From NCBI RefSeq assembly GCF_056746865.1, contig NZ_CM163382.1: a stretch of DNA of 64,000 nt. One strand, given 5' to 3'. Both the position numbers and the translations under genes were made by a program. Positions 34,545-56,575 of the stretch are shown here, in pieces. Below the pieces are notes generated by a model. It worked only from the letters and a program-made list of their open reading frames with translations. It was not told where the DNA came from and did no database searches. Within the stretch, counting starts at the first letter, position 1; each line of letters begins with the position of its first letter.

Positions 34545-34644
34545 TTAACAACTTTGCAGATTAATTAACCAATTGAAATGACTTATGAAATTTAGTGTTG
34601 ACAGACAAGGTACCGCTAAGTAATATGCGCCCCGTTCACACGAT

Positions 34645-34720
34645 TCCTCTGTAGTTCAGTCGGTAGAACGGCGGACTGTTAATCCGTATGTCACTGGTTC
34701 GAGTCCAGTCAGAGGAGCCA
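34645..34720 (+). tRNA. asnT: tRNA-Asn (asnT)
   Basis: 76-nt TCCTCTGTAGTTCAGTCGGTAGAACGGCGGACTGTTAATCCG...GAGGAGCCA. Confidence 0.95.
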
Positions 34721-34797
34721 GATTCAAGTTTTCATGCTTATCTGTACGTTTATATTTGTTTACGATTCAGTAAGTTAGCGTGAAAATCCTTGCCGGT

Positions 34798-34869
34798 GCG
34801 TATCTGGTTTTATCTCCGCATCGGGATAATTTGGTGGTCAGATCTGGGGTCAGTTTGGTTCGATTCTGG
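34798..34869 (+). repeat. Short direct repeats (GTATCTGG / AGATCTGG / CGATTCTGG) between asnT and the integrase start; candidate integrase arm-type sites
   Basis: Three related octamers at about 34800, 34840 and 34861, plus two GGTCAG copies. Confidence 0.35.
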
Positions 34870-34882
34870 AGTGACCCCCAAA

Positions 34883-36151
34883 ATGTCTTTAAACGATTCT
34901 AAAATCCGCAAGTTAAAATCTTCTTCCCGTCCGGTAAAACTCTCCGACTCTCACGGTCTGTATCTGCTCGTCAATCCGGGCGGTTCGCGCATCTGGTATC
35001 TCAAATATCGTTTCAACGGAAAAGAATCCAGAGTCAGTCTTGGCGCATACCCGCTGGTCTCACTGGCAGAAGCCAGGCAACAGCGCGACGGTATCCGCAA
35101 GTTACTGGCGCAGAATATCAACCCGGCGCAGCAGCGCATGGCAGAGAAAGCCGCCTGCTCCCCTGAAAAGTGCTTTAAAGCGGTGGCGGTGGCGCTGGCC
35201 TGGCACAAAACCAACAAAAAATGGTCGGCTGATTATGCCGCCCGTATTCTCGCCAGTATGGAAAACCATATCTTCCCGGCGGTTGGTCATTTGCCCGTTG
35301 CCAAACTTAAAACGCAGGATTTCACTGCCCTGCTGAGGGTTATTGAGGATAAGGGCTTTCTGGAAGTCGCGTCCCGCACGCGGCAGCAACTCAGCAACAT
35401 CATGCGCTATGCCGTATAGCAGGGGCTTACCGAAAGCAATCCGGCGCAGCATCTGGATGGCGTTGTCTCCTCCCCCGTAAAGAATCACTACCCCGCGTTA
35501 CCGCTGGAGCGGTTGTCCGAACTGCTTGGCCGCATCGGTGACTATCAGCAGGGCCGGGAGTTAACCCGGCTGGCGGAGGTGCTGACACTGCACCTGTTCA
35601 TCCGTTCCAGCGAACTGCGTTTCGCCCGCTGGAGCGAGATCGATTTCAGGCACAAAATCTGGACCATCCCCGCCACCCGCGAGGCCATCGACAAAGTTCG
35701 GTTTTCGGGGCGTGGCGCAAAAATGCGTACTCCGCATATCGTACCGCTCTCCCGCCAGGCGATTGCCCTTCTGAAACAGATACAGGAGCTTTCCGGCCAT
35801 CTGGATCTGGTGTTTCCCGGCGATCATAATCCGTACAAGCCAATGAGCGAAAACACAACCAACCGGGCGCTGCGCCTGATGGGGTATGACACGAAAACTG
35901 AAATCTGCGGGCATGGACTCAGGGCAATGGCCTGTAGCGCCCTGGTGGAGTCGGACCTGTGGTCACGCGATACGGTGGAGCGGCAAATGAGCCACCAGGA
36001 GCGCAACAGCGTGCGGGCGGCATATGTGCATAAAGCAGAGCATCTGGAGGCCAGAAAGGCCATGATGCAGTGGTGGTCGGATTATCTGGATGTGTGCCGC
36101 GAGGGGTATGTTGCGCCGTACATTTATGCCCGGCAGCATAAGGCAGCCTGA
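34883..36151 (+). pseudogene. P4-type tyrosine integrase at asnT, interrupted by a single in-frame TAG at 35417..35419
   Basis: ORFs 34790..35419 and 35513..36151 share one frame and are separated only by TAG; N-terminal SLNDSKIRKLK arm-binding-type domain; C-terminal catalytic region. Confidence 0.85.
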
Positions 36152-36186
36152 ATCAGAAATAGCGTAAATCATTAAAACCGGAAAAG

Positions 36187-36217
36187 CAGATCCTGATTGA
36201 CCGGGATCTGTTTTTTT
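36187..36217 (+). terminator. Rho-independent terminator after the integrase gene
   Basis: CAGATCC...GGGATCTG hairpin followed by TTTTTTT. Confidence 0.7.
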
Positions 36218-36320
36218 GTATTGAGAGGTATTGTCGCTGTTTTTGTTATTATTAATTGGGAAGCACCGAAAATTATTCCAGTAGAATATTTGCAGTCGAT
36301 TGCCTATTAATAAATGCATT

Positions 36321-36660
36321 ATTGATAGATAATTACCTTCTGTGATTTGCCTGCAAATCACAGAAGATGAAAACCTATCAATACGGGATATTTTCACGAA
36401 AATACAAATTAATACTCCAGAATATCTGCACCAGAATATCTCCTGACCCTATACTCTGAAACCTGTAAGAACTGCATCAGATATTCAGAAACCAGACAGA
36501 TATAAGCCTGAAATTATTTGGCGTCCAATGATTTCAGGCGAAACCTATCAATGCATCTGTTTTCAACAGGCAGCCACCTTCCGTGATTCACATGTTAATC
36601 ATGGAAGGTGAAAAGCTATCAATAATCGACATTTCCACGGAATTACCACTTAATACATCC
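36321..36660. repeat. Array of three related modules, each a hairpin (palindrome) followed by a conserved box GAAA(A)(C/G)CTATCAAT-N5-a(t/c)aTTT(t/c)CA(c/a); plus one inverted box copy
   Basis: Palindromes 36337..36366 (perfect 14-bp arms), 36506..36539, 36575..36610; CTATCAAT at 36375, 36545, 36616; inverted ATTGATAG at 36321; no ORF. Confidence 0.6.
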
Positions 36661-37461
36661 CCAAAAATGCGCCATAAAATACCGGACAATCTTTCCTGAT
36701 ACAGATTATCACTGCACCAGCTATACGGAGACAAAATAATCTGCACCCGTCCTGGATAATCTGCTATCTGCGCCAGCGTCCCGCCGCTCTACCTGTTCAG
36801 TGCTGCGCCAGTACCTGGCCCTTTAGTTTTTGGCCCTTTCAGGTCAGGCGCTGTTCCCCTTATCGCCCCCTTAACCTTTATGACCCTTTCCCTTTCTGGC
36901 GCAGCCAGTTTATTTGGAAATGCTCCATGACAGTCTGCACCAGACTGTATTTTCACCACAGGATAACAATCACAAAGTGCAAAAAATAACATGAAGCACC
37001 GAAGATTCTTAATTCATATGAAGCAGGTTATTATGCCAAAAACCGTCGCAGCATTTTTATAAAATCATGAGGCATCCTGAGACCATATAATATATGTCAC
37101 AGGATACGGAAAAACACAGAGAGAATTATTCAGATATAACCCTGTGCCAGAATTAATGTGATGCCCCGGTGAATTTACATTTTAAAATTTTCCCAGCCCT
37201 GTAGTATTGGTAAAAATGATTGAAACACCTGTTATTAACAGAGAGCATTTCGTGTGATTACAGGGGTAATCACTATAATATTCCGACAAACTATATTGGT
37301 TAAGCAGGAGAATCTGATCTGTTGATATTTATTCGTCATGCTGTAACGATATTTTCACAATATAAACCCGTTCGCCCCCTGCGCCAGATCCGGAACATAG
37401 GGTACGATAAATCGCTGTCGTTACGCAGTAACGTACTATTTTGCGACATTCATGAATTCAG

Positions 37462-38346
37462 TTATTCCTCCCTCCAGCGGTATCCATACACCTGTTTCAC
37501 CCAGCGACCGCGACCGTCGCCATGACCCAGATCCGTCGCCGTCAGCGCCAGGGATTCCTTTTCGCTGAATCCCTGCGCCAGATAATGGCGGATCGCATCC
37601 TGCGCCCAGGCATAGCGCAGGGAGTGAGGGGAAAATTCCCCCTTCAGCCCCACCTTAATGACCTGTTTGTGCCAGCTCTCCAGCGCCATTTTGAGATCAG
37701 GCTTGTCGATCAGCCTGCCATTGTGTCGATCCGCGACCAGTAAGGCCTTTTCCAGAGCCTTCCTGACTGCGCCAGTATCCAGAACTGTCGTATGGCGGGG
37801 ACGCCCACCTTTGGTGCCAAACACCACTTTCAGCCGGTTTTCCCCGCGCTCAATGGCTTTCAGCCACGTTTTCAGCGACAGTGAACTCTGTACCGCTTCC
37901 TGCGAGCGTAACCCCATCAGTCGCGCGATCTCCAGCGCCGCAGCCAGCCCCGCATCCTCAGCGCGGGCTTTCTCCATAACCTGCTGGTAATGTTCCGGCG
38001 TAATGGCGCGGCGCGTACCGTTGCGTGAAGCGCCCGACACTCCCAGCGCCTTATTGGTTAGGCGTGGATGCTCCACCACCTGCCTGCGTCCAGCCTGTCT
38101 CAGCACGGCCTGCAGTGCCGCCATGTCGTTTTGCAGCGTTCGTAAACCAATATCCTGCTCCAGCCGTTCCTCAATGTAGCATTCGATATGGCGAACCCTG
38201 ATCTGCTCCACCCGCTGGATCTGGATATTCAGCGCCCGTAAATGTTCACTGAACCGTTTTGTAATATGGATACGGTCATTCACTGTTTTAAAGCTGCCGC
38301 CCGCTTTCTTCGCCAGCGCCTTCATTTCACTGCTTAATTTACTCAT
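37462..38346 (-). CDS. Tyrosine-type site-specific recombinase / integrase-family protein (294 aa), second recombinase of the asnT islet
   Basis: C-terminal HSLRYAWA...DLGHGDGRGRWVKQVYGY resembles the H-x-x-R ... catalytic-Y region of tyrosine recombinases; AGGGGA Shine-Dalgarno upstream of ATG. Confidence 0.6.
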   Translation of the reverse strand: MSKLSSEMKALAKKAGGSFKTVNDRIHITKRFSEHLRALNIQIQRVEQIRVRHIECYIEERLEQDIGLRTLQNDMAALQAVLRQAGRRQVVEHPRLTNKALGVSGASRNGTRRAITPEHYQQVMEKARAEDAGLAAALEIARLMGLRSQEAVQSSLSLKTWLKAIERGENRLKVVFGTKGGRPRHTTVLDTGAVRKALEKALLVADRHNGRLIDKPDLKMALESWHKQVIKVGLKGEFSPHSLRYAWAQDAIRHYLAQGFSEKESLALTATDLGHGDGRGRWVKQVYGYRWREE

Positions 38347-38935
38347 GAATCCCCTGCAACATAAACAAACAGTCTCCGGCGTGTGCTGTTTGGCTGCGCC
38401 AGAACGATACCTTCACGCCGGAGTGGCTGGTTGTTGAGGTTTAGGGAGTTTCAGGCTGTACGCGGTACAGACTGCCTGACGAAGCAGGGGTGTCTCCGGA
38501 GCATCGTGCCCCCCCTCGGTATCGATCTTTTTCTCCTTTACTCTGAGCTGACAGCGGCCCCAAAGGGCATGTCAGACGGCGGAAATATGGCGCAGGCCGG
38601 GACTGGCGCGGCTTGCGGCGGTATGTTGTGCAGCGTCACTTTGCCCTGTCGCTGGCGCGACCAGAGTGACACCTCGTCTGGTGCAGAGGGTAAACGTTGC
38701 GTTTCTGGTGCAGGGTGACGGTCACGCGGCAGCAAAGCCTGCTGTCTTTGCAGGCCGCAGCCCGTCAATGTAAGGCGCGGGTTGTCAGCAGAAGATAAAA
38801 CCCGGCAAAGCCAGAGTGCCAGCCCGTAAAGCCGGGTAAGCATGGCTACGAAGAAGAGAAGTGGAGAAAAAATAAATGACCGACAAATCTTATGCGGGAT
38901 GGGAATTAAACTACGCCGCTTAACTGCGGGTAACG

Positions 38936-41900
38936 GTGACCTTCACCATGCCACAGGACGTTGCGGCAAACTTTACCCTCGAAAATAACGGCATTGCCAT
39001 CACCCAAGCCAATGGGGAAGCGCATGTCACGCTGAAAGGTAAAAAAGCGGGTACGCATACGGTTACCGCAACGCTGGGTAATAACAATACCAGTGATTCG
39101 CAGCCGGTAACGTTTGTGGCGGACAAAACCTCGGCTCAGGTTGTCCTGCAGATGTCAAAAGATGAGATCACAGGTAATGGCGTCGATAACGCAACGCTAA
39201 CTGCAACGGTTAAAGATCAGTTCGACAATGAGGTGAATAATCTTCCGGTAACATTCAGCTCAGCCTCTTCAGGACTCACCCTGACCCCGGGAGTAAGTAA
39301 TACCAATGAGTCTGGCATCGCGCAGGCCACTCTCGCAGGCGTTGCCTTTGGTGAGCAGACGGTCACTGCATCACTGGCTAATAATGGTGCCAGCGACAAC
39401 AAAACTGTGCATTTTATTGGCGACACAGCAGCGGCAAAAATTATCGAGTTGACGCCTGTCCCAGACAGCATAATCGCCGGTACCCCGCAGAACAGCTCCG
39501 GCAGCGTCATCACCGCCACAGTCGTTGATAATAATGGCTTTCCGGTGAAAGGTGTGACTGTGAACTTCACCAGCAGAACAAACTCTGCCGAAATGACGAA
39601 TGGCGGCCAAGCCGTAACGAACGAACAGGGTAAGGCTACCGTCACTTATACCAATACCCGCTCCTCGATAGAATCAGGAGCGAGACCGCATACCGTTGAG
39701 GCCAGTCTGGAAAATGGTAGCTCCACGCTTAGCACATCAATTAATGTCAACGCTGATGCGTCTACGGCACATCTCACCTTGCTACAGGCACTTTTTGATA
39801 CAGTCTCCGCAGGCGACACTACCAATCTGTATATTGAGGTGAAGGATAATTACGGCAACGGTGTACCCCAGCAGGAGGTAACCCTCAGAGTATCACCAAG
39901 TGAAGGCGTGACCCCCAGTAATAACGCTATATATACTACCAACCACGACGGCAATTTTTACGCAAGCTTTACCGCTACAAAAGCCGGGGTTTATCAAGTG
40001 ACGGCAACCCTCGAAAATGGCGATTCGATGCAACAAACAGTGACCTATGTGCCGAACGTAGCGAATGCTGAAATCACGCTGGCAGCCTCGAAGGATCCGG
40101 TGATTGCCGACAATAACGATATCACGACACTAACAGCAACAGTCGCTGATACAGAGGGCAATGCGATAGCCAACACTGAGGTAACATTTACTCTGCCGGA
40201 AGATGTGAGGGCGAACTTCACGCTGAGCGATGGCGGTAAAGCGGTTACTGATGCCGATGGCAAAGCGAAAGTCACGCTGAAAGGTACAAAAGCAGGCGCT
40301 CATACTGTTACAGCATCGATGGCTGGCGGTAAGAGTGAGCAGTTGGTGGTGAACTTTATTGCGGATACACTCACTGCGCAGGTTAATCTTAACGTTACCG
40401 AGGACAATTTTATCGCTAATAACGTCGGGATGACCAGGCTGCAGGCAACAGTGACTGATGGAAACGGCAACCCGTTAGCCAATGAGGCGGTGACATTCAC
40501 GCTACCGGCAGATGTGAGCGCAAGCTTTACTCTCGGACAAGGCGGTTCCGCCATTACTGATATCAACGGCAAGGCTGAAGTTACACTGAGCGGTACAAAA
40601 TCCGGCACCTACCCCGTGACAGTTAGCGTGAACAATTATGGTGTCAGTGATACGAAACAGGTGACTTTGATTGCCGATGCTGGTACCGCAAAACTAGCCT
40701 CATTAACCTCTGTATACTCTTTCGTCGTCAGCACGACCGAGGGCGCGACCATGACTGCAAGCGTCACTGACGCTAACGGCAACCCGGTAGAAGGCATAAA
40801 AGTTAATTTCCGCGGAACCTCCGTCACGCTAAGCAGCACCAGCGTTGAAACGGATGATCGGGGTTTCGCTGAAATTCTTGTGACAAGCACCGAGGTCGGA
40901 CTGAAAACAGTTTCAGCCTCTCTGGCAGATAAACCTACTGAAGTCATCTCGCGATTACTGAATGCAAAAGCAGATATTAATTCTGCAACGATTACCAGTC
41001 TGGAGATACCTGAAGGTCAGGTCATGGTCGCACAAGACGTAGCAGTTAAAGCTCACGTCAACGACCAGTTTGGCAATCCGATTCTTAATGAATCTGTAAC
41101 ATTCAGTGCAGAGCCACCAGAGCACATGACCATCAGCCAAAATATTGTCTCTACTGATACGCATGGTATAGCCGAGGTCACTATGACGCCCGAAAGAAAC
41201 GGTTCGTATATGGTGAAAGCATCCCTGGCGAATGGATCCTCTTATGAGAAGGATCTGGTGGTAATCGATTAAAAACTGACACTCTCGGCGTCCAGCCCGC
41301 TTATCGGTGTCAATTCCCCAACAGGTGCAACTCTGACGGCAACGCTAACTTCTGCAAATGGCACTCCAGTGGAGGGTCAGGTCATCAACTTTAGCGTAAC
41401 GCCAGAAGGTGCGACGTTAAGTGGCGGAAAAGTGGGAACCAACTCTTCAGGTCAGGCTCCAGTCGTTCTGACCAGCAATAAAGTCGGTACATATACGGTG
41501 ACTGCATCGTTCCATAACGGCGTAACAATACAGACACAGACAACCGTGAAAGTCACTGGCAACTCAAGCACCGCCCATGTTGCTAGCTTTATCGCTGATC
41601 CATCGACTATCGCCGCCACCAACAGTGATTTAAGTACCTTAAAGGCAACGGTTGAGGATGGCAGTGGTAACCTGATCGAAGGTCTCACTGTGTACTTCGC
41701 CTTAAAAAGCGGCTCTGCCACATTAACGTCATTAACAGCGGTGACAGATCAAAACGGAATCGCGACAACAAGCGTGAGAGGAGCGATAACGGGGAGCGTC
41801 ACGGTAAGCGCAGTCACGACCGCTGGTGGAATGCAAACAGTAGATATAACGCTGGTGGCAGGCCCGGCAGACGCCTCAAAGTCAGTCCTTAAGAACAATC

Positions 41901-42000
41901 GGTCATCATTGAAAGGAGACTTTACCGATAGTGCTGAGCTACATCTTGTTCTGCACGATATATCAGGCAATCCGATCAAAGTTTCTGAAGGGCTGGAATT
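38936..42000 (+). repeat. Tandem coding repeats of about 300 nt (bacterial Ig-like domains) within the yeeJ remnant
   Basis: Recurrent nucleotide and protein motifs (GTCACGCTGAAAGGTA..., TVTATL/TVTASM) at roughly 100-aa spacing. Confidence 0.6.
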
Positions 42001-42775
42001 TGTGCAATCAGGTACTAACGTGCCCTATATGAAAATTAGCGCAATTGATTACAGTCAAAATATCAACGGTGATTACAAAGCCACCATTACAGGCGGCGGA
42101 GAGGGTATCGCAACGCTGATCCCTGTATTGAATGGTGTTCATCAAGCTGGTCTGAGTACCACAATACAATTCACTCGCGCAGAAGACAAAATAATGAGCG
42201 GTACAGTATCAGTCAATGGTACTGACCTACCGACAACTACATTCCCTTCGCAGGGGTTCACCGGGGCGTATTATCAGTTGAATAATGACAACTTTGCCCC
42301 AGGAAAAACGGCGGCTGATTATGAGTTTTCAAGCTCTGCCTCCTGGGTCGATGTTGATGCTACCGGTAAAGTGACATTTAAAAATGTCGGCAGCAATTGG
42401 GAAAGGATTACGGCGACGCCAAAATCAGGAGGCCCTAGCTATGTATACGAAATCCGTGTGAAGAGTTGGTGGGTGAACTCCGGCGATGCTTTCATGATAT
42501 ACAGCCTTGCTGAAAATTTTTGCAGTAGCAATGGCTACACACTTCCCCGTGCAGACCATTTAAACCATAGTCGTTCCCGAGGCATCGGGTCACTGTACAG
42601 TGAATGGGGAGATATGGGGCATTACACGACTGAAGCTGGTTTTCAATCAAATATGTATTGGTCATCTAGTCCCGCAAACTCAAGCGAACAATACGTAGTT
42701 TCCCTGGCAACAGGTGATCAAAGCGTATTTGAAAAGCTTGGGTTTGCTTATGCGACATGTGATAAAAACCTGTGA
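38936..42775 (+). pseudogene. yeeJ: 3' portion of an inverse-autotransporter adhesin gene (yeeJ-like; Big_1 Ig-like repeats and C-terminal lectin-like domain), 5' half absent, with in-frame TAA at 41270..41272
   Basis: ORFs 38936..41272 and 41369..42775 share one frame, separated by one TAA; repeated VTFTLP...FTL...G.A.VTLKG.KAG.HTVTA units; homology begins abruptly at about 38924 with no signal peptide or beta-barrel region. Confidence 0.8.
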
Positions 42776-42796
42776 TTTTCCGTTATAATTTCTTAA

Positions 42797-42826
42797 AGAG
42801 TGCTCCATTCGGAGCACTCTTTTTTA
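42797..42826. terminator. Bidirectional rho-independent terminator between yeeJ and yeeL
   Basis: GAGTGCTCC-ATTC-GGAGCACTC hairpin followed by TTTTTT. Confidence 0.75.
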
Positions 42827-43036
42827 CATTCCCTCTATAGAGCTTGCCCTTCTCTCACAGAAAATGAATAAATAAAACTGCTGCACCGCAAGAATCGCGT
42901 TCGATGTGACTATGATCGTATCCGGTGAGTACAGCTTTGATCCAAAGGCTGGTTTTCTGTGATGATTGACCAGCCTCAGAGTATTGATGACACCACCGTT
43001 CATAACAGATCGGCATTACTATGCATAAGTACTGTC

Positions 43037-43191
43037 TCATATTCTCGCCAAAACACTTTTTAATGCCTTTGCGAATTCATCCAGACTTATATTGTCAATT
43101 TTTTGCCCAACGACGACTGACTCCGAAACATCGGCCATTGCGGGCCATCGCGTTTTGTAATCAGCATAAATTGCAACAACGGGAGTATTAT
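43037..43191 (-). pseudogene. yeeL: Displaced 3' end of yeeL (about 51 codons) left of the IS2 insertion
   Basis: Minus-strand frame continues the yeeL frame once IS2 plus one 5-bp duplication (1336 bp) is removed. Confidence 0.55.
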
Positions 43192-43202
43192 TGGATTTGC
43201 CC

Positions 43203-44108
43203 CTATATTTCCAGACACCTGTTATCACTTAACCCATTACTGGCCCGCTGCCGTAGATATTCCCGTGGCGAGCGATAACCCAGTGCACTATGCGGATGCC
43301 ATTCGTTATAATGCTCGAACGCCTCTGCAAGGTTCTTTGCTGCCGTTAACCCGTCTGGTTTAGGCATGATACTGATGTAGTCACGCTTTATCGTTTTCAC
43401 GAAGCTCTCTGCTATGCCGTTACTCTCCGGACTCCGCACCGCCGTGTTCTTCGGTTCAAGCCCCAACATCCGGGCAAACTGCCGTGTTTCATTAGCCCGG
43501 TAGCATGAACCATTATCCGTCAGCCACTCTACTGGAGACGCCGGAAGCTCGTTGCCGAAGCGGCGTTCCACCGCTCCCAGCATTACGTCCTGTACTGTTT
43601 CACTGTCGAAGCCGCCCGTAGTGACTGCCCAGTGCAGTGCCTCACGGTCACAGCAGTCCAGCGCGAACGTGACTCGCAGTTTTTCTCCGTTATCACAGCG
43701 GAACTCGAACCCGTCAGAGCACCATCGTTGATTGCTTTCTTTCACGGCCACTTTGCCAGTATGTGCCCGTTTCGATGGCGGTACAGCGGTTTTTCGCTCA
43801 AGCAACAGCGCATTCTGGCGCATGATCCGGTAAACACGTTTGGCATTGATCGCAGGCATACCATCAAGTTCGGCCTGTCTGCGAAGCAGCGCCCATACCC
43901 GACGATAACCATACGTGGGCAGCTCTCCGATAACATGGTGTATACGGAGAAGCACATCCGTATCATCTGAGTGACGGCTGCGGCGACCATCTTTCCAGTC
44001 ATCGGTTCGTCTGAGAATGACGTGCAACTGCGCACGCGACACCCGGAGACAACGGCTGACTAAGCTTACTCCCCATCCCCGGGCAATAAGGGCGCGTGCG
44101 CTATCCAC
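43203..44108 (-). CDS. insD: IS2 transposase OrfB (InsD)
   Basis: 301-aa ORF with DDE-transposase sequence. Confidence 0.93.
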
Positions 44109-44431
44109 TTTTTTGCACGCCCGTATTCAACGGCTTCTTTAAGGAGTTCATTTTCCATCGTTTTTTTGCCGAGCAGGCGCTGGAGTTCTTTAATCTGCTT
44201 CATGGCAGCAGCAAGTTCAGAGGCAGGAACGACCTGCTCTCCTGCGGCCACAGCAGTAAGACTTCCCTCCTGGTATTGCTTGCGCCAGAGAAATAACTGG
44301 CTGGCTGCCACACCGTGTTGCCGGGCAACAAGGGAGACCGTCATTCCCGGTTCAAAACTCTGCTGAACAATAGCGATCTTTTCCTGTGTAGTACGCCGTC
44401 TGCGTTTCTCCGGTCCTAAGACATCAATCAT
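44066..44431 (-). CDS. insC: IS2 OrfA (InsC)
   Basis: 121-aa product from [18 protein letters not shown]; overlaps insD for -1 frameshifting. Confidence 0.93.
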
Positions 44432-44522
44432 CTGCTCTCCAATGACTAGTCTAAAAACTAGTATTAAGACTATCACTTATTTAAGTGATATTGGTTGTCT
44501 GGAGATTCAGGGGGCCAGTCTA

Positions 44523-45488
44523 ATTATAGGCACTTGCCATATGTAATATTGAGGTGTCAGGAGTTATTGCGATATAAGCATCTTTTATGATTGCTGCTGA
44601 ACGTTTAATCGAGGGTGATAAGGATAAACGGTAGACATTATTATAACAATCCACTAATACCCTGGCTTTATCTTCCCCTTTTGGTCCATGAACGATCACT
44701 ATTGGTATATCTGTTTCACTTTGAATTTTTGCTATTAGATTTTCTGCAATCGATAATGAAAATGTACGTTCCTGCGAGCTACCTTCTAAATTAAGCGCAA
44801 TGTAAGATCCTAACGATCGCATTTCCTCGCGCACCTCATCGAGTACATCCTCACTTAGTGGCAATTCATATATTGGCCTGACTGCTGGAAAACCCGCCTC
44901 ACGCATCATAAATGCCCATGTCATGGGTACAGGAGCCCGGAGATTCTGATCCATCCGGGACGCGTTCTTGCACAAAGGGGAGTAGCACTTCATGGTTAAA
45001 CCAACAACCTGAAAATTCGTTTTTGCTTTTAACTGACTGATAAATATCATCGTTTTCAGGTTCTTTTTACGCATCGCCTCTATACAAAGATCCGGCGTAC
45101 CGTATTGCTGTGTTATGTTCTTTGCTAAATCTTTTATTTCTTTTAATGTTGCGTGATCCTGCATAGTCATTGTGACTAATGTTAATTTAGTCTTTTCAAG
45201 TTTAAGTGCATTAAACACTTCTAAATTAATTGTCGACGTAACAATTAAAAGATGCTTAATTTTATGCAATTCAAGCGCCCGAATAACAGGAAAGATGGCC
45301 ATAGCATCGCCAATCTGGTCGGGAATATGGATAACAACAAACTCTGTTTTTTCAATATTAAAATTATAAGCTTTATAATCGTAGTAACTAAATGCAATAC
45401 GTCTCAACAATGATGCTAAAAACATACCTAACCTCGCCTCCCTACTGGTTATAATGCATTGCAGTCTATCAGACTCATCATGGCGCAA
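44523..45488 (-). pseudogene. yeeL: yeeL, uncharacterised putative transferase, 3' end disrupted by IS2
   Basis: 322-aa ORF whose apparent stop codon lies inside the IS2 terminus. Confidence 0.7.
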
Positions 45489-45739
45489 TTTTGTGCATAT
45501 GCGGACTTTTATGTTTCATATCTCGAACCTGTGGGTCCTCTGCTTAATCCTTAAACAACACCAGCAACTCCTGCGCTTTCATCTTCCAGCGAATTTTTCA
45601 TGTTGCCGTTAATCGGCCATAAAATCATTTGCAGATGCGCTCTGTCGAGGTAGTCTCATAAGGTTCGTTTATAGATCGACGGCAATGTGAGTTACCTTTT
45701 CCATACTAATTATAAAAAGACAGTACAAACAGGATCATT

Positions 45740-47056: not shown

Positions 47057-47157
47057 TAGCCTGGCGAAGATCATCCGATCTTCGCCTTACACTTTTGTTT
47101 CACATTTCTGTGACATACTATCGGATGTGCGGTAATTGTATGGAACAGGAGACACAC

Positions 47158-48612
47158 ATGAATAATAAGGGCTCCGGTCTGACCCCAGCTCAGGCACTGG
47201 ATAAACTCGACGCGCTGTATGAGCAATCTGTAGTCGCATTACGCAACGCCATTGGCAACTATATTACAAGTGGCGAATTACCTGATGAAAACGCCCGCAA
47301 ACAAGGTCTTTTTGTCTATCCATCACTGACCGTAACCTGGGACGGTAGCACAACCAATCCCCCCAAAACGCGCGCATTTGGTCGCTTTACCCACGCAGGC
47401 AGCTACACCACCACGATTACTCGCCCTACTCTCTTTCGTTCGTATCTTAATGAACAACTTACGTTGCTGTATCAGGATTATGGTGCGCATATCTCAGTGC
47501 AACCCTCGCAGCATGAAATCCCTTATCCTTATGTCATCGATGGCTCTGAATTGACACTTGATCGCTCAATGAGCGCTGGGTTAACTCGCTACTTCCCGAC
47601 AACAGAACTGGCGCAAATTGGCGATGAAACTGCAGACGGCATTTATCATCCAACTGAATTCTCCCCGCTATCGCATTTTGATGCGCGCCGCGTCGATTTT
47701 TCCCTCGCACGGTTGCGCCATTATACCGGTACGCCAGTTGAACATTTTCAGCCGTTCGTCTTGTTTACCAACTACACACGTTATGTGGATGAATTCGTTC
47801 GTTGGGGATGCAGCCAGATCCTCGATCCTGATAGTCCCTACATTGCCCTTTCTTGTGCTGGCGGGAACTGGATCACCGCCGAAACCGAAGCGCCAGAAGA
47901 AGCCATTTCCGACCTTGCATGGAAAAAACATCAGATGCCAGCATGGCATTTAATTACCGCCGATGGTCAGGGTATTACTCTGGTGAATATTGGCGTGGGA
48001 CCATCCAATGCTAAAACCATCTGCGATCATCTGGCAGTGCTACGCCCGGATGTCTGGTTGATGATTGGTCACTGTGGCGGATTACGTGAAAGTCAGGCCA
48101 TTGGCGATTATGTACTTGCACACGCTTATTTACGCGATGACCACGTTCTTGATGCGGTTCTGCCGCCCGATATTCCTATTCCGAGCATTGCTGAAGTGCA
48201 ACGTGCGCTTTATGACGCCACCAAGCTGGTGAGTGGCAGGCCCGGTGAGGAAGTCAAACAGCGGCTACGTACAGGTACTGTGGTAACCACAGATGACAGG
48301 AACTGGGAATTACGTTACTCAGCTTCTGCACTTCGTTTTAACTTAAGCCGGGCCGTAGCAATTGATATGGAAAGTGCAACCATTGCCGCGCAAGGATATC
48401 GTTTCCGCGTGCCATACGGGACACTACTGTGTGTTTCAGATAAACCGTTGCATGGCGAGATTAAACTTCCCGGTCAGGCTAACCGTTTTTATGAAGGTGC
48501 TATTTCCGAACACCTGCAAATTGGCATTCGGGCGATCGATTTGCTGCGCGCAGAAGGCGACCGACTGCATTCGCGTAAATTACGAACCTTTAATGAGCCG
48601 CCGTTCCGATAA
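47158..48612 (+). CDS. amn: AMP nucleosidase Amn
   Basis: 484-aa product from MNNKGSGLTPAQALDKL (ATG 47158). Confidence 0.93.
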   Translation: MNNKGSGLTPAQALDKLDALYEQSVVALRNAIGNYITSGELPDENARKQGLFVYPSLTVTWDGSTTNPPKTRAFGRFTHAGSYTTTITRPTLFRSYLNEQLTLLYQDYGAHISVQPSQHEIPYPYVIDGSELTLDRSMSAGLTRYFPTTELAQIGDETADGIYHPTEFSPLSHFDARRVDFSLARLRHYTGTPVEHFQPFVLFTNYTRYVDEFVRWGCSQILDPDSPYIALSCAGGNWITAETEAPEEAISDLAWKKHQMPAWHLITADGQGITLVNIGVGPSNAKTICDHLAVLRPDVWLMIGHCGGLRESQAIGDYVLAHAYLRDDHVLDAVLPPDIPIPSIAEVQRALYDATKLVSGRPGEEVKQRLRTGTVVTTDDRNWELRYSASALRFNLSRAVAIDMESATIAAQGYRFRVPYGTLLCVSDKPLHGEIKLPGQANRFYEGAISEHLQIGIRAIDLLRAEGDRLHSRKLRTFNEPPFR

Positions 48613-48954
48613 TAAGTTCTGAACCTTCTCATCAGAAATAGATGTGAAGGATTAAGTAAGACATCTGGCAAATAGCCTGCAATCAACGCGGGCTGTTTGC
48701 TTCCTTGGGCAGATGCGAGTTTCATTATCGTCTTAATGATTTCCGCATATTAAAAGCATGTATGCTTTCAAAATATAATTATAAAAAATCCCGCCAACAA
48801 CATTAGTTTTTATAAAACAAAATATAAGATTATGGCTTTAGAATATTTTTATTTCTAATAGACGAGATTTTTCCTGTTATGATATAATATGCTGATTTAA
48901 CACATGTTAACGATTTACCAGTAATGTAAATAAATTTTCGAGGAGATCATTCCA

Positions 48955-49671
48955 GTGGGACGTAAATGGGCCAATATTGTTGCTAAAAAAACGGCTAAAG
49001 ACGGTGCAACGTCTAAAATTTATGCAAAATTCGGTGTAGAAATCTATGCTGCTGCTAAACAAGGTGAACCCGATCCAGAATTAAACACATCTTTAAAATT
49101 CGTTATTGAACGTGCAAAGCAGGCACAAGTTCCAAAGCACGTTATTGATAAAGCAATTGATAAAGCCAAAGGCGGCGGAGATGAAACGTTCGTGCAGGGC
49201 CGTTATGAAGGCTTTGGTCCTAATGGCTCAATGATTATCGCCGAGACATTGACTTCAAATGTTAACCGTACGATTGCTAACGTTCGCACAATTTTCAATA
49301 AAAAAGGCGGCAATATCGGAGCGGCAGGTTCTGTCAGCTATATGTTTGACAATACGGGTGTGATTGTATTTAAAGGATCAGACCCTGACCATATTTTTGA
49401 AATTTTACTTGAAGCTGAAGTTGATGTTCGTGATGTGACTGAAGAAGAAGGTAACATTGCTATTTATACCGAACCTACTGACCTTCATAAAGGAATCGCG
49501 GCTCTAAAAGCAGCTGGAATCACTGAGTTCTCAACAACAGAATTAGAAATGATTGCGCAATCTGAAGTTGAGCTTTCCCCAGAAGATTTAGAAATCTTTG
49601 AAGGGCTTGTTGATGCCCTTGAAGATGACGACGATGTACAAAAAGTTTATCATAACGTCGCAAATCTCTAA
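48955..49671 (+). CDS. yeeN: YebC/PmpR-family transcriptional regulator YeeN
   Basis: 238-aa ORF, apparent GTG start. Confidence 0.9.
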
Positions 49672-49681
49672 TTATATTTTA

Positions 49682-49712
49682 AAGAAATCTGTCTTTACGG
49701 CAGATTTCTTTA
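49682..49712 (+). terminator. Rho-independent terminator after yeeN
   Basis: AGAAATCTG...CAGATTTCT hairpin followed by TTAAT. Confidence 0.6.
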
Positions 49713-50123
49713 ATCTCATATAACCCTTATAAAAAATATAATGTTCAACTCGTCATATTGATTATAAAAAATCCCCGTTCCCAGAGAAATAATATTTATT
49801 AAAATTCCAGTTCTTCTTTTTCTGATTACAGAAGGCAAAGTGGCAATTACGCATAGTTTCCCGATAAAGACGCGATAGCGACATCCCGCATAAGGCATTT
49901 TTCTCTTTATCTTTGTACGGTACTTCATGGAACAGAGTTTTTGACCTTGCGAATCGTGATGTCTGTTGGGGGGCAACTTGCTCACTGAAGCGTGAGACTC
50001 GATTAAGCGCACGAAACACAGAAATCAAAAAAACCGGTCACTTTTTTACAAGGTAACCGGGTAAAAATAATTTTTATTTTTTAACTGTTTTGAGACTCAT
50101 AGAGATGTCTCAAAACTAAAATT

Positions 50124-50199
50124 TGGCTCCTCTGACTGGACTCGAACCAGTGACATACGGATTAACAGTCCGCCGTTCTACCGACTGAACTACAGAGGA
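50124..50199 (-). tRNA. asnW: tRNA-Asn (asnW)
   Basis: Reverse complement identical to the asnT sequence. Confidence 0.95.
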
Positions 50200-50299
50200 A
50201 TCGTGAGAACGAGGCGAATATTAGCGATGCCCACCCACAATGTCAAAGCCTGTTTTTTAAATTTGAAATCGTTTGCTGAAATAATCTGCATTTTGTCGT

Positions 50300-51943
50300 T
50301 TATTCCGACACAACTGGCTTTTTTTCACACTTTTGCGGCTCGGGTCGAGGGTATTTCCATAGCCAACGTCCAGTAACCATTCGCCAGTAAAACAGCACGG
50401 CCCGCACAGCCCAGTCGGCAAACATTCCCATCCAGACACCAACCACACCCCAGCCAAGCATGATTCCCAGCACATAACCGACTACAACCCGACAACCCCA
50501 CATGCTCAACATCGAAACCCACATGGCGTAACGGGCATCACGAGCACCTTTAAATCCAGCGGGTAGCACCCATGAGGCGGACCAAATAGGCATAAATAAA
50601 GCATTTAGCCAAATCAGAATCACAACGACATGTTTAACCTGTGGATCCTGGGTGTAAAACGATGCCATAACCCCGGCAAAGGGAGCCGTTAGCCAGGCGA
50701 TGGCCGTTAATCCAAGAGTGGAAAGCCAGAACACATGCCGCAACTGAATCTCTGCTTGCGCTATCTGCCCTACCCCCAACCTTCGGCCTGTAATGATCGT
50801 AGAAGCAGAGCCGAGCGCACTTCCGGGTAAGTTGATAAGAGCCGCAATTGAAAACGCGATAAAATTTCCGGCAATAACACTGGTCCCCATCCCGGCAACG
50901 AACATTTGGGTTAATAACCGACCACTGGTAAATAACACTGATTCGACACTCGCGGGAATACCAATCCCCATGACTTCCCAGATAATGCTAAAATTCAGCG
51001 GTTTAAAATAGCTCTTTAACGAAATCCTTAGCGCAGGATTAAAACCAATCGCCAGCACCCACAAAATTGCAACTGCGCCAATATAACGAGAAATGGTTAA
51101 ACCCAGCCCTGCCCCGACAAATCCCAGTCCCGGCCAGGAGAAAAGGCCGTAAATCAATATGCCGCTAATAATAATATTAAGAATATTCAGGCTACCGTTA
51201 ATCAATAGCGGTATTTTCGTATTCCCTGCACCACGAAGTGCCCCGCTACCAATAAGAGTGATGGCAGCTGCTGGATAACTGAGTACCGTCAGCTCCAGAT
51301 AAGTCAACGCCAGTGCTTTAACTTCTGTCGTGGCATCACCCGCGACGAAATCAATAATTTGTTCGCCAAAATGATGAATAAGCGTTGCCAACAGTACGGC
51401 AAACAACGTCATGATCACCAATGACTGCCGCGTCGCCACCCTCGCTCGTCGTCGATCCCGCTTACCGAGACTAAATGCCACAACGACAGTAGTACCAAGA
51501 TCGATAGCAGCAAAAAAAGCCATAATGACCATATTGAAGCTGTCCGCCAATCCCACGCCGGCCATCGCATCTTTTCCCAGCCAGCTGACCAGAAAAGTGC
51601 TCAGAACCCCCATCAACAGGACACAGGCATTCTCCATGAAGATAGGAACAGCAAGCGGGGTTATCTCGCGCCAGAACAACACTTTGTAGCTCTTGCGTTT
51701 AGCGTGCCAGCGAGTGCCGTGAACAACCTGGCGTAAAGCAGAGGAGATATTCAAAGCCGACCTTAATTGCAGAAAGTGAAACCACATTTCAAATAATGAG
51801 GGAGAATCAGCAAAGCTGCAAAGATTTTCGCCAACAAATTGTCTGCAAATGCAACAAACTGTTGATAGAAACGGCAAACAGTTGGGGAATTTAAAAATCG
51901 GGTTTGACAAAAGATTTTTCGCCGTTAAGATGTGCCTCAACAA
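50300..51943 (-). CDS. yeeO: MATE-family efflux transporter YeeO
   Basis: 547-aa ORF, 12 TM helices over the C-terminal ~450 aa; true start uncertain. Confidence 0.85.
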   Translation of the reverse strand: MLRHILTAKNLLSNPIFKFPNCLPFLSTVCCICRQFVGENLCSFADSPSLFEMWFHFLQLRSALNISSALRQVVHGTRWHAKRKSYKVLFWREITPLAVPIFMENACVLLMGVLSTFLVSWLGKDAMAGVGLADSFNMVIMAFFAAIDLGTTVVVAFSLGKRDRRRARVATRQSLVIMTLFAVLLATLIHHFGEQIIDFVAGDATTEVKALALTYLELTVLSYPAAAITLIGSGALRGAGNTKIPLLINGSLNILNIIISGILIYGLFSWPGLGFVGAGLGLTISRYIGAVAILWVLAIGFNPALRISLKSYFKPLNFSIIWEVMGIGIPASVESVLFTSGRLLTQMFVAGMGTSVIAGNFIAFSIAALINLPGSALGSASTIITGRRLGVGQIAQAEIQLRHVFWLSTLGLTAIAWLTAPFAGVMASFYTQDPQVKHVVVILIWLNALFMPIWSASWVLPAGFKGARDARYAMWVSMLSMWGCRVVVGYVLGIMLGWGVVGVWMGMFADWAVRAVLFYWRMVTGRWLWKYPRPEPQKCEKKPVVSE

Positions 51944-51947
51944 CGAT

Positions 51948-52023
51948 TCCTCTGTAGTTCAGTCGGTAGAACGGCGGACTGTTAATCCGTATGTCACTGG
52001 TTCGAGTCCAGTCAGAGGAGCCA
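51948..52023 (+). tRNA. asnU: tRNA-Asn (asnU)
   Basis: Identical 76-nt tRNA-Asn sequence. Confidence 0.95.
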
Positions 52024-52060
52024 AATTCCTGAAAAGCCCGCTTTTATAGCGGGATTTTTG

Positions 52061-53011
52061 CTATATCTGATAATCAATTTCCTCTTCACTGCTTTCCATC
52101 ACCTGCCGCTTGATATCCTCAACTGACAGTCCTGCATTACAAAGTTCCAGAAAGCGCCAGACATAGTTACGCTGAAGTTGTCCTCGCTTCAGTCCCAACC
52201 AGACAGTATTAGCATCAAAAAGATGCCGCGTATCCAGGCGGATTAAATTCTCTTCCTCTTGTTCGCCACTGGATTGCTCGGCAACTAATCCGATCCCAAG
52301 CCCAAGAGCAACATAGGTTTTAATGACATCAGAATCCTGCGCACTTAATACAATATCTGCCAGCAAACCTTTGCGGGCAAATGCGTCATCAATACGTGAG
52401 CGCCCCGTAATCCCCTGTCGGTAAGTGATTAACGGCCACTTCGCTATTGATTCCAGCGTCAATGGTGAAATTTGCGTCAAGGGATGATCGTGTGGAACAA
52501 GCAAACTATGGTGCCAACGAAACCACGGGAAGGCGACGAGCTGCGGGTCATTACTCAAACGCTCGCTGGCGATACCAATATCAGCTTCGCCATTTTGCAA
52601 CAATGTCGCAATTTCCTGTGGCGTCCCCTGGATTAGCTCGAGCCGAACCTCCGGGAAAAGTTCGCGAAAAGCTTTAATGACCTCTGGCAAGCTATAACGT
52701 GCCTGAGTATGCGTCGTTGCAATAGTGAGAACGCCAGACGTATCGTTGGTAAACAGGTCTGCAAGCCGACGAACATTACTGGCTTCATTCAGAATACGTT
52801 CTGCAATGACCAGTAATGCTTTGCCCGGTTCAGTCATGCCCAGCAGTCGCTTACCTCGTCGAACAAATATTTCGATGCCAAGTTCATCCTCCAGTTCCCG
52901 AATATGACGGCTGACGCCTGACTGTGAGGTAAAAAGCATATTCGCAACCTCTGTCAGGTTGTAATCCTGACGTGCAGCCTCGCGGATTATCTTTAGTTGT
53001 TGGAAATTCAC
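52061..53011 (-). CDS. cbl: LysR-type regulator Cbl (sulfonate-sulfur utilisation)
   Basis: 316-aa LysR-family ORF. Confidence 0.92.
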   Translation of the reverse strand: MNFQQLKIIREAARQDYNLTEVANMLFTSQSGVSRHIRELEDELGIEIFVRRGKRLLGMTEPGKALLVIAERILNEASNVRRLADLFTNDTSGVLTIATTHTQARYSLPEVIKAFRELFPEVRLELIQGTPQEIATLLQNGEADIGIASERLSNDPQLVAFPWFRWHHSLLVPHDHPLTQISPLTLESIAKWPLITYRQGITGRSRIDDAFARKGLLADIVLSAQDSDVIKTYVALGLGIGLVAEQSSGEQEEENLIRLDTRHLFDANTVWLGLKRGQLQRNYVWRFLELCNAGLSVEDIKRQVMESSEEEIDYQI

Positions 53012-53112
53012 GGTAAACTCCGGGCAGTTCAGATTTCCCGTTATTGTTAAAGTCTAATGCCCGGCATAACAAATAATAAAAACCCGCATCTTATTCCATC
53101 CCGATATAACAC

Positions 53113-54030
53113 TTAGCTCACCAATTGCCACTGCCTTTTTTCCATCACTGGAGAACTAATCACTGACATTAACAACTCTTTCACTGCCTGTGCCTGTGGC
53201 GATAAGTTCGCTCTGGCGGGTAAATTTAATGACAAAGAGAGACTCATGGAAGGAGTGGTAATGCGTGACATCCACCCATTTACTGCGCCACATAACGAAC
53301 GCGCGGCCGATTCGGGTAATACTGCAACGCCCATGCCGCTGGCAATCGCTGCGGTAAGCGTGGCAATAGACTCAATTTCACCAATAACTTTTGCCGTGAG
53401 TCGCCGTAGGGAAAAAGCCTCATCAACACGAAGTCTAATAGCACTGTAATCACTGGGGAGAAAGAGGTTCATTTGCGCAATAGCATTCACATCAACGCTT
53501 TGCCCCGGGCAATCTTGAGTTCCTACCAGAAAAAGATCTTCTTTCAGCAAAGCCTGACTGGATACACCAGCCACAGGGGAATGCTCATAAATCACCGCCA
53601 TATCGAGTTGGTGATTTATCAATTTTTCGTTAAGCACTGCACCACTATTTTCATGAAGATAGATAACGATCTCCGGAAATTCAGCGCGAACCGCCTGTAA
53701 TAAGGGCATGGTGATGGATGACGCAGCGGTTCCTGGTGCAAAGCCAATCGAGACTTGCCCCGATAATGCCTGACCAACGTTATGCACCGCCAGTTGGGCC
53801 TGTTCACACTGACGTAAAATGGCCCGCGCATGGGTATAGAGAATTTTTCCGGCGTCTGTTGGTGTAACGCCCCGCTTTGTACGGATCAAAAGTTGTTGAT
53901 TTAACTCACCTTCCAGTGTGGCAACCTGCTGGCTGAGCGCTGGTTGTGCGATATGCAATACTTCAGCAGCCTGGGTCAGGCTACCAATATCTACAATTTT
54001 TACGAAGTATTTCAGGCGTCTGAAGTTCAT
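53113..54030 (-). CDS. nac: Nitrogen assimilation control protein Nac (LysR family)
   Basis: 305-aa product from MNFRRLKYFVKIVDIGSLTQAAE. Confidence 0.92.
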   Translation of the reverse strand: MNFRRLKYFVKIVDIGSLTQAAEVLHIAQPALSQQVATLEGELNQQLLIRTKRGVTPTDAGKILYTHARAILRQCEQAQLAVHNVGQALSGQVSIGFAPGTAASSITMPLLQAVRAEFPEIVIYLHENSGAVLNEKLINHQLDMAVIYEHSPVAGVSSQALLKEDLFLVGTQDCPGQSVDVNAIAQMNLFLPSDYSAIRLRVDEAFSLRRLTAKVIGEIESIATLTAAIASGMGVAVLPESAARSLCGAVNGWMSRITTPSMSLSLSLNLPARANLSPQAQAVKELLMSVISSPVMEKRQWQLVS

Positions 54031-54356
54031 GTTGCCTCCGGTTTTTAAGAATCGGCCCAAGTGCCGCCATTACTTACAACCAGATTGCAAGATGCTTGCC
54101 AGTTTTATTTTGGTGTTGATGTACAAGCTAACCAACTGTCAAATAAGAGATTATGATAGATTCGTCATTGGCTCTTTTTATCTGCAGTCGCATTCACCTG
54201 CCCTATAAAAGGAGGGTATGCACCACGATGGTTCATTACCCAATAAGATTGAAAGCTCACCACTTTGTTGAAATTGGCAGCAAACAAACAAAAAAATGCA
54301 TTTCACCCTTTGACATCACCATGCACTGCCATTAATATGCGCCCCGTTCACACGAT

Positions 54357-54432
54357 TCCTCTGTAGTTCAGTCGGTAGAACGGCGGACTGTTAATCCGTA
54401 TGTCACTGGTTCGAGTCCAGTCAGAGGAGCCA
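54357..54432 (+). tRNA. asnV: tRNA-Asn (asnV)
   Basis: Identical 76-nt tRNA-Asn; upstream 27 nt identical to the asnT upstream sequence. Confidence 0.95.
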
Positions 54433-54487
54433 AATTCAAAAAAGCCTGCTTTCGAGCAGGCTTTTTACTTTCTAATTATCAACGCTC

Positions 54488-55420: not shown

Positions 55421-55484
55421 CATGTCCCTTTCCTAAGTCGCGAAAGCTATCCGTTAAGTATAGCTTTTATCAGACTTTTCGTTT

Positions 55485-56564: not shown

Positions 56565-56575
56565 GTCACGTCTCT

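Follow-up and report, generated by a model that had tools for sequence, protein, structure and literature searches.

In Escherichia coli, the genes for tRNA-Asn are the attachment sites of two well described islands: the Yersinia high-pathogenicity island (HPI) is found at asnT, and the pks island at asnW, asnU or asnV (Auvray et al. 2021, PMC8209727). The same work reports multi-site integration at the asn genes, an inversion of the asnW-asnU-asnV block in pks-positive strains, and the absence of the right repeat from the E. coli HPI. The identity of the four asn genes, the attachment of HPI and pks to them and the inversion of the block are already textbook or published knowledge. What the present analysis adds consists of corrections and numbers: a dead integrase of a third lineage, a ranking of the occupancy of the four loci, and recombinant junctions for every pair which includes asnW as well as for an asnU x asnV deletion. 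These figures could help the typing of asn-associated islands and the checking of assemblies of the region.

The four tRNA-Asn genes

The window (the whole stretch of 64,000 nucleotides which was analysed) is a piece of E. coli chromosome, and strain F11 is nearly identical to it. ARAGORN detects four tRNA-Asn genes with the anticodon GTT, namely asnT (34645-34720, + strand), asnW (50124-50199, - strand), asnU (51948-52023, + strand) and asnV (54357-54432, + strand); each adopts the cloverleaf and scores 72.6 bits with the Rfam tRNA model (RF00005). The four copies are mutually identical at 76 of 76 nucleotides, they are also 76/76 identical to the K-12 genes of the same names, and this identity holds for each copy across all the strains inspected. 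One 25-nt segment of the gene is present four times, whereas 100 shuffles predict none. The initial annotation was thus right to place four identical 76-nt genes here, but it distributed them two on each strand: the strands are in fact +, -, +, +, i.e. three and one, and asnW is the sole inverted copy.

The window keeps the gene order of K-12 (serU-mtfA-asnT...asnW-yeeO-asnU-cbl-nac-asnV-ldtA), with flanking genes as in NC_000913.3 and with exactly the same spacing: 1748 nt from asnW to asnU, 2333 nt from asnU to asnV and 452 nt from yeeN to asnW. In sequence, order, orientation, neighbours and asnW-asnU-asnV spacing, the family is therefore like that of K-12 (b1977, b1984, b1986, b1989). The window differs from K-12 by a 4.2-kb island remnant which follows asnT where K-12 has the asnT-yeeJ intergenic region, by a yeeJ gene truncated at its 5' end, and by an IS2 element within yeeL. 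No evidence contradicts the identification of the four genes. We consider it very probable that they are the chromosomal tRNA-Asn(GUU) family of E. coli and that the whole account given here, with its promoters, landing sites, decayed island at asnT and recombination, is correct.

A promoter-like site precedes every copy. At asnT (34598-34626, + strand) it reads TTGACA-17-TAATAT, a match at 10 of 12 positions, and is followed by the GC-rich discriminator GCGCCCC; the promoter scan placed the other sites at 50246-50218 (- strand) for asnW, 51904-51931 (+ strand) for asnU and 54310-54338 (+ strand) for asnV. All four rank within the top seven matches of the 20-kb scan, and alignment of the copies shows an unchanged TTGACA box in each. 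Terminator-like hairpins lie 3' of asnU (52037-52053, + strand) and of asnV (54439-54466, + strand); asnT has no terminator, and the island starts 5 nt beyond the gene. Each asn gene probably forms a single-gene transcription unit under its own strong sigma-70 promoter, on a common plan of TTGACA, 16-17 nt, TAATAT or TAAGAT and a GC-rich discriminator, and asnU and asnV probably end at terminators of their own. The run shared upstream of asnT and asnV, previously given as 27 nt, is 24 exact nucleotides long in the alignment of the copies, and in K-12 a G/T difference makes it shorter. Judged from its sequence, this run probably consists of the promoter -10 box, the discriminator and the leader, and would not be the scar of a mobile element.

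The decayed island at asnT

Homology with K-12 extends to 34725 and is found again only from 38928, a position within yeeJ. The 4.2 kb in between (34726-38927), at the 3' end of asnT, are the remnant of a P4-like genomic island. An integrase gene of 422 codons (34883-36151, + strand) starts 162 nt past asnT. Domain matches, translation and alignment identify it as a P4-type tyrosine integrase, with the arm-binding (Arm-DNA-bind_3, PF13356), central (Phage_int_M, PF22022) and catalytic (Phage_integrase, PF00589) domains; the NCBIfam model PRK09692 gives 223 bits, under its cut-off of 434 bits. As in the HPI and pks islands (PMC8209727), the P4-type integrase lies directly 3' of an asn gene and is read in the same direction. 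The reading frame is interrupted: at 35417-35419 a CAG has become an in-frame TAG, at codon 179 of 422, before the catalytic domain. The gene also carries a 6-nt insertion absent from all its relatives, and RefSeq labels the integrase a pseudogene in the near-identical strains F11 and D2 as well as in 1409 and TD225-C4. The stop codon suggests that integrase function has been lost. Within the interval from asnT to asnV, integrase-like genes are found only 3' of the asnT copy; the 3' flank of asnW is unoccupied, with yeeN at 452 nt as in K-12, and so are asnU and asnV. Hence the earlier statement that only asnT carries an integrase stands as far as occupancy is concerned, asnT being the sole occupied copy, but what it carries is a nonsense pseudogene in a truncated island and not an intact gene.

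The right end of the island and attR are absent, and the adjoining chromosome is deleted to about 3.2 kb into yeeJ. When the 3'-terminal 16 or 25 nt of the tRNA gene were sought throughout the 64 kb with 2-3 mismatches allowed, only the four genes matched and no extra copy was found; the far end of an excisable island would be marked by a second copy of this 3' end in direct orientation, which is missing here. What is left of yeeJ, an inverse autotransporter adhesin recognized by its Big_1 repeats and by comparison with K-12, is divided by an internal stop into two ORFs (38928-42775, + strand), and its start is missing because the loss of the right end of the island took it along. In this strain, a small P4-like island probably used asnT alone and later decayed, through the nonsense mutation of its integrase and through a deletion which took its right end, attR and the 5' portion of yeeJ. 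What is left of it are the integrase pseudogene, a second recombinase gene and an EFASI RNA. Since the integrase is dead and the right end and attR are lost, we infer that the island is now fixed in place, much as the E. coli HPI is immobilised through the loss of its right repeat.

The second recombinase gene (37462-38346, - strand), which was absent from the initial annotation, is intact and encodes 294 aa of the Integrase_1/Phage_int_SAM_2 tyrosine-recombinase family (PF12835, 6.7e-60; PF12834, 1.5e-39). It also matches the integrase family phrog_1, and in F11 and D2 it is annotated as an "integrase domain-containing protein". Directly 5' of it lies an EFASI RNA motif (RF02957; 38401-38530, - strand), full length (1-133) and scoring 95.7 bits for a gathering score of 51.2. 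The pairing of EFASI with Integrase_1 recurs in four other strains; EFASI is usually partnered by STAXI, but neither the window nor the four related loci gave a STAXI match at the gathering threshold.

The distance from asnT to asnW is greater than in K-12, in part because an insertion sequence of the IS3 family entered the glycosyltransferase-9 gene yeeL (43036-45425). This element (43192-44522, - strand) is 1331 bp long, contains orfA and orfB (HTH_Tnp_1 and rve domains) and is flanked by a 5-bp target duplication, ATTAT; from its length and end sequence we take it to be IS2. Among the RefSeq complete E. coli genomes none has IS2 in yeeL (best coverage 89%), F11 being the closest, and an IS3-family copy in F11 is 99.8% identical to the element.

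Occupancy of the asn loci and lineage of the asnT integrase

We examined the four loci in 5,426 complete E. coli genomes from RefSeq, a biased and clonal sample in which counts of genomes are not counts of events. The queries were junctions of 876 nt matched at a coverage of at least 80%, so that a locus which is not native may contain an island, an inversion, a deletion or divergent flanks. The asnT locus is empty as in K-12 in 2,670 genomes (49%), and an integrase abuts asnT in 2,467, of the HPI type in about 2,133 (about 39% of genomes) and of the window type in about 334 (about 6%), a split which follows from bands of identity. The empty layout seen in the window is kept at asnW in 4,980 genomes (92%), at asnU in 5,177 (95%) and at asnV in 4,664 (86%), which ranks occupancy as asnT >> asnV > asnW > asnU. 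For instance, HPI sits at asnT in NC101, pks adjoins an asn gene in Nissle and HH45, and ST131 has a restriction-modification/pilus island at asnV. The view that asn genes are integration hotspots, which invariant loci would have weakened, is supported by this comparison, as the loci vary considerably between genomes. The 3' end of the tRNA-Asn gene probably serves as the attachment site of related P4-type integrases, those of HPI, of pks and of the lineage found in the window; with this site in common, all four copies would therefore be alternative landing sites.

One may ask whether the asnT integrase is a leftover of HPI after a deletion of ybt. No other island occupies asnT nearly as often as HPI, which is there in about 2,130 of the 5,426 genomes (NC101 is an example), and the HPI of E. 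coli, too, is without its right repeat (PMC8209727). However, the window integrase is no nearer to that of HPI (69% aa and 72% nt identity with NC101) than to that of pks (70% aa identity with Nissle), and an identity of 69-70% aa to each rules out that it is either allele; aa identity with the integrase of the ST131 asnV island is 51%. Neither island can be recognized by its genes: ybt genes are absent between asnT and yeeJ, where the HPI integrase allele would accompany ybt, irp and fyuA, and the flanks of asnW, asnU and asnV, where the pks allele and clbA-clbS could stand beside an asn gene, are unoccupied. In the six relatives inspected, the integrase lineage (>90% identity) was not seen together with ybt/irp, and the fuller relatives carry Integrase_1 with EFASI, C4/isrK immunity RNAs, toxin-antitoxin genes and Rhs cargo, without ybt. 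An origin from HPI is hence very unlikely. By its sequence the window integrase belongs to a third asn-specific lineage, neither HPI nor pks; the window differs from both islands in having no ybt or clb genes and in its integrase being a pseudogene of this lineage.

The island also resembles the P4-like, satellite-derived cryptic islands of E. coli, which combine int with a C4/isrK immunity region and variable cargo. Its fuller relatives share the integrase lineage of the window and contain the C4 antisense RNA, the a1b1 targets of this RNA and isrK, together with helix-turn-helix/ash-like genes and a variable cargo (Rhs, toxin-antitoxin, HEPN); the window keeps the integrase pseudogene, EFASI and the Integrase_1 gene, and the rest is deleted. 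Could the island still be mobile? Readthrough or suppression of the TAG would allow it, and so would transfer of the element from one asn copy to another by the intact Integrase_1-family recombinase with EFASI. In favour of this, the window has an uninterrupted ORF for the second recombinase, islands of the window type stand at asnT, asnW (KE55) and asnV (1409) in different strains, and strain 1409 carries one and the same CAG->TAG integrase at asnT and again at asnV, in copies about 2% diverged. In ATCC 8739, two places match the integrase query. Yet the stop precedes the catalytic domain, the window has no attR, and the Integrase_1 gene is itself damaged elsewhere, by a frameshift in KE55 and by truncation of the asnV copy in strain 1409. 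The integrase lineage has moreover been inactivated repeatedly and independently, as expected under decay: the gene has a stop at codon 370 in SWHEFF_69 and a frameshift in KE55, and is intact in PE164. Homologous recombination, or a related integrase supplied in trans, could also account for the copying from one asn site to another. We regard present mobility as most improbable and keep to an island decayed in place. That the conserved TAG is a functional, selected stop was likewise rejected as the main reading, since distant relatives are intact or have other lesions.

Recombination between the asn copies

The initial annotation had suggested that the identical copies are substrates for recombination, and that inversions might be sought between copies of opposite orientation. 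In the 5,426 genomes such inversions were found for asnW with each of its partners: chimeric junctions mark asnV x asnW in 265 genomes, asnU x asnW in 34 and asnT x asnW in 1, some of which could in principle be assembly errors. The inversion of the block described in pks-positive strains (PMC8209727) is the one seen here in 265 genomes. A further junction, in 35 genomes, corresponds to an asnU x asnV deletion which removes cbl and nac. The junctions are exact, with the upstream flank of one copy, the tRNA, and the downstream flank of another copy, and the rearrangements were verified through gene order in ET5, TC24, HH45 and SWHEFF_69. For the U x W inversion, both reciprocal junctions are present in the same strains. 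For V x W, the island-free reciprocal junction exists in one genome only, SE15; therefore the V x W inversion nearly always goes together with an occupied junction, in agreement with the published account.

The products are thus seen directly, and the structure of the junctions points to RecA-type homologous recombination, for which the copies can serve because they are identical over 76-100 bp. Across E. coli, exchange between the copies has produced inversions of the inverted copy, asnW, with each of the others, and a deletion between asnU and asnV. It might be objected that the four genes are simply paralogues held identical by selection on the tRNA, with no role in rearrangement. The 76/76 identity in every strain inspected could indeed result from purifying selection alone, and most genomes keep the K-12 order. 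But exact chimeric junctions in 265, 34, 1 and 35 genomes, accompanied by inversion or deletion of the genes in between, as expected, and by reciprocal junctions, already refute this objection, to which we attach almost no probability.

A bolder extension of the recombination account is that island segments move between asn copies without an integrase of their own, by tRNA-anchored homologous recombination or gene conversion, or else by the intact Integrase_1 recombinase with EFASI, and that the asn cluster acts as a recurrent rearrangement switch. This we hold to be rather unlikely. It is suggested, for the movement, by the same dead integrase at asnT and asnV of strain 1409, and, for the switch, by the asnU x asnW flip of yeeO, which goes beyond the single published pks-linked inversion: its 34 genomes are of varied background, with identities from 96.9 to 99.5%.

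Four identical tRNA-Asn genes in a K-12-like order

We found five tRNA genes in the window with ARAGORN: serU, tRNA-Ser(CGA) (33564-33653, minus strand), and four tRNA-Asn(GTT) genes, asnT (34645-34720, plus), asnW (50124-50199, minus), asnU (51948-52023, plus) and asnV (54357-54432, plus), each of these four also matched by the Rfam tRNA model with 72.6 bits. The initial annotation had placed the four asn genes at exactly these coordinates and called them identical; they are (76/76), among themselves and to asnT, asnW, asnU and asnV of K-12, and a 25-nt stretch taken from it is found 4 times in the window, against 0 expected from 100 shuffles. Two of its details have to be corrected: the copies do not lie two on each strand, asnW being the only inverted one, and the sequence common to asnT and asnV upstream of the gene is an exact run of 24 nt instead of 27. 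One G/T difference breaks this run in K-12. The tRNA-Asn gene also has matches of ~100 nt and 97% identity in 13-14 places on plasmids (e.g. NZ_CP196293.1, 5,969 bp).

In the alignment of the upstream flanks, an invariant TTGACA, a 16-17-nt spacer, TAATAT (TAAGAT in asnU) and a GC-rich discriminator precede all four copies, and a consensus scan ranks the four sites among the 7 best promoter matches in 20 kb. Terminator-like hairpins lie directly 3' of asnU (52037-52053) and of asnV (54439-54466). With its own promoter-like site, and with hairpins after two of the copies, each asn gene is a separate transcription unit; the 24 nt common to asnT and asnV belong to paralogous promoters and comprise their -10 box, discriminator and leader.

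The window is E. coli DNA. The region is present in 5,425 of 5,426 E. coli genomes (12-kb query), and the window keeps the gene order of K-12: serU-mtfA-asnT-(island)-'yeeJ-yeeL-shiA-amn-yeeN-asnW-yeeO-asnU-cbl-nac-asnV-ldtA-cobTSU. The asnW-asnU (1748 nt), asnU-asnV (2333 nt) and yeeN-asnW (452 nt) spacings are equal to those of K-12. This means that asnW, asnU and asnV are all three unoccupied.

Strain F11 (NZ_CP184143.1) is 100% identical over the matching 89% of the 12-kb query. An insertion of 1331 bp in the glycosyltransferase-9 gene yeeL (43192-44522, minus strand, target duplication ATTAT), which we take from its length and end sequence to be IS2, has no counterpart at this site among complete RefSeq E. 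coli genomes (best coverage 89%). Leaving it aside, the window and F11 show 7 differences in 1-54169, then 91 mismatches in 54170-57558, with ~1% divergence persisting beyond; position 54170, in the nac-asnV intergenic region 187 nt 5' of asnV, marks a recombination-tract boundary. In F11, an IS2 copy and ~2 kb of IS and TonB-receptor fragments lie 3' of cobU; at this place the window has no more than 486 nt (58883-59368). Alignment to the F11 annotation also places in the window an OmpC-like porin gene interrupted by IS1 (~24231-24928) and, as expected for the region, the sRNA genes DsrA (14598-14684, minus) and rseX (23086-23175, plus).

The island remnant at asnT

Homology to K-12 stops at 34725, 5 nt past asnT, and restarts at 38928, ~3.2 kb into yeeJ. 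The 4.2-kb insert holds three features: a P4-type tyrosine integrase of 422 codons (34883-36151; Arm-DNA-bind_3, Phage_int_M and Phage_integrase domains), an intact gene of the Integrase_1/Phage_int_SAM_2 family (37462-38346, 294 aa) on the minus strand, opposite to the integrase, and directly 5' of that gene the EFASI RNA motif (Rfam RF02957; 38401-38530, minus strand, 95.7 bits). The claim that only asnT carries an integrase thus holds as far as the other three copies are concerned; the gene at asnT, however, has an in-frame TAG at codon 179 (35417-35419), before the catalytic domain. RefSeq labels integrases of this type as pseudogenes in strains F11, D2, 1409 and TD225-C4. We infer that the integrase is inactive. 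After integration, an asn promoter takes over from the integrase promoter (Auvray et al. 2021, PMC8209727), and the asnT promoter probably reads through into int here.

EFASI is described in Rfam, as quoted in PMC12370729, as a motif of unknown function near integrases. Its pairing with the Integrase_1-family gene recurs in the asn islands of four other strains, 1409 and PE164 among them; STAXI, the usual partner of EFASI, was not found beside this pairing. Apart from the asn genes themselves, the tRNA 3' end is not found again in the 64-kb window. Hence, we concluded that the right end of the island was lost, and with it the spacer between asnT and yeeJ and the 5' portion of yeeJ. In this adhesin gene (38928-42775, plus strand), 3.2 kb are missing at the 5' end and an internal stop divides the rest into two ORFs. 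Strain D2 has the same island and retains 3.1 kb more of yeeJ, which shows that the gene was truncated in two or more steps; these may have taken place between Ig-like repeats.

The integrase shares 69% of its amino acids with that of the Yersinia high-pathogenicity island (HPI, in NC101), 70% with that of the colibactin island (pks, in Nissle) and 51% with that of the ST131 asnV island, while the HPI and pks integrases are 81% identical to each other. At 69-70%, a remnant of HPI or of pks at asnT is ruled out, and the integrase represents a third asn-specific lineage. Fuller relatives show the former content of the island: int is followed by the Integrase_1 gene with EFASI, then by helix-turn-helix genes and C4/isrK P4-type immunity RNAs, then by variable cargo (Rhs, toxin-antitoxin or HEPN genes, among others).

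The lineage is under repeated decay. The window shares its CAG to TAG change with F11, D2, TD225-C4 and the two integrase copies of strain 1409; in SWHEFF_69 the stop lies elsewhere, at codon 370, in KE55 the frame is shifted, and the PE164 integrase (82.8% nucleotide identity to the window's) is intact. The two copies of 1409, at asnT and asnV (9384-10646 and 36304-37566 of its locus), share the TAG although they are ~2% apart, and ~15% apart in the spacer behind. This means that the island was copied or converted after, or despite, the inactivation of its integrase. That homologous recombination or the second recombinase/EFASI module copies dead-integrase segments from one asn site to another, a reading based on this one strain, seems to us rather improbable.

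Occupancy of the asn genes

That asn loci are integration hotspots, as the initial annotation held, is correct and already known, as are its other interpretations, small factual slips apart: HPI at asnT is fixed and has its right repeat deleted, P4-type integrases insert pks at asnW, asnU or asnV, and identity among the three asn sequences is 100% (Auvray et al. 2021, PMC8209727). What occupies asnT in this strain, the occupancy figures below and some of the rearrangements (asnU-asnW and asnT-asnW inversions, asnU-asnV deletion) are minor additions.

We searched 5,426 complete E. coli genomes with junction queries of 876 nt, each made of a tRNA gene and 400 nt of flank on either side, counting a genome if one place covered at least 80% of the query. 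Occupancy is highly variable, not invariant. An integrase of the window integrase's family follows asnT in 2,467 genomes (45%), asnT is empty as in K-12 (asnT-yeeJ) in 2,670 (49%), and something else is there in ~5%. At 80-90% identity, 2,133 of the 2,467 junctions are of HPI type (checked in NC101, where ybtS and ybtX come after the integrase); by subtraction, ~334 are of window type. The window's unoccupied layout is found at asnW in 4,980 genomes (92%), at asnU in 5,177 (95%) and at asnV in 4,664 (86%); in the remainder, islands are counted together with rearrangements and divergent flanks. Ranked by departure from this layout, the loci thus follow the order asnT >> asnV > asnW > asnU, in a clonal and clinically biased set where counts are not numbers of events.

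The integrase alone matches 2,640 genomes in 3,008 places (two of them in ATCC 8739), and in 477 genomes a copy reaches 90% identity or more to that of the window. Window-type islands lie at asnW in KE55 and SWHEFF_69 and at asnV in 1409; pks adjoins an asn gene in Nissle and HH45, asnV bears a type III restriction-modification/pilus island in ST131 and an intact integrase in TC24. The serU gene is empty in the window; in NC101 an island lies next to it (49-2041 of the locus), and in PE164 a Qin/Dic-like prophage whose integrase is frameshifted (1-7667 of the locus), which puts mtfA between two adjacent tDNA hotspots.

Recombination between the copies

Identical copies had been proposed as substrates for recombination and inversion, and chimeric queries (upstream flank of one copy, tRNA, downstream flank of another) recovered such junctions. 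Joining asnV upstream to asnW downstream, an inverted asnW-asnV block is present in 265 genomes, Nissle 1917 and M1/5 among them; pks was confirmed beside it in Nissle 1917 and HH45. The island-free reciprocal (asnW upstream, asnV downstream) is seen only in SE15 (1 genome), which agrees with the published association of this inversion with pks. The asnU-asnW junction (asnU upstream, asnW downstream), where yeeO alone is flipped, occurs in 34 genomes with backgrounds of 96.9-99.5% identity, and strains bearing it also have its reciprocal; the asnT-asnW junction (asnT upstream, asnW downstream), inverting the whole interval, occurs in 1 genome (ET5). The expected rearranged gene orders are seen in HH45, TC24, ET5 and SWHEFF_69. 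This recombination probably depends on RecA.

Finally, the asnU-asnV junction (asnU upstream, asnV downstream) is found in 35 genomes (13940-15839 of the locus in SWHEFF_69). All 12 among the matches listed have one identity value, 98.7%, which suggests a single lineage. The deletion removes one asn copy with cbl and nac, LysR-type regulators of sulfur and nitrogen assimilation.
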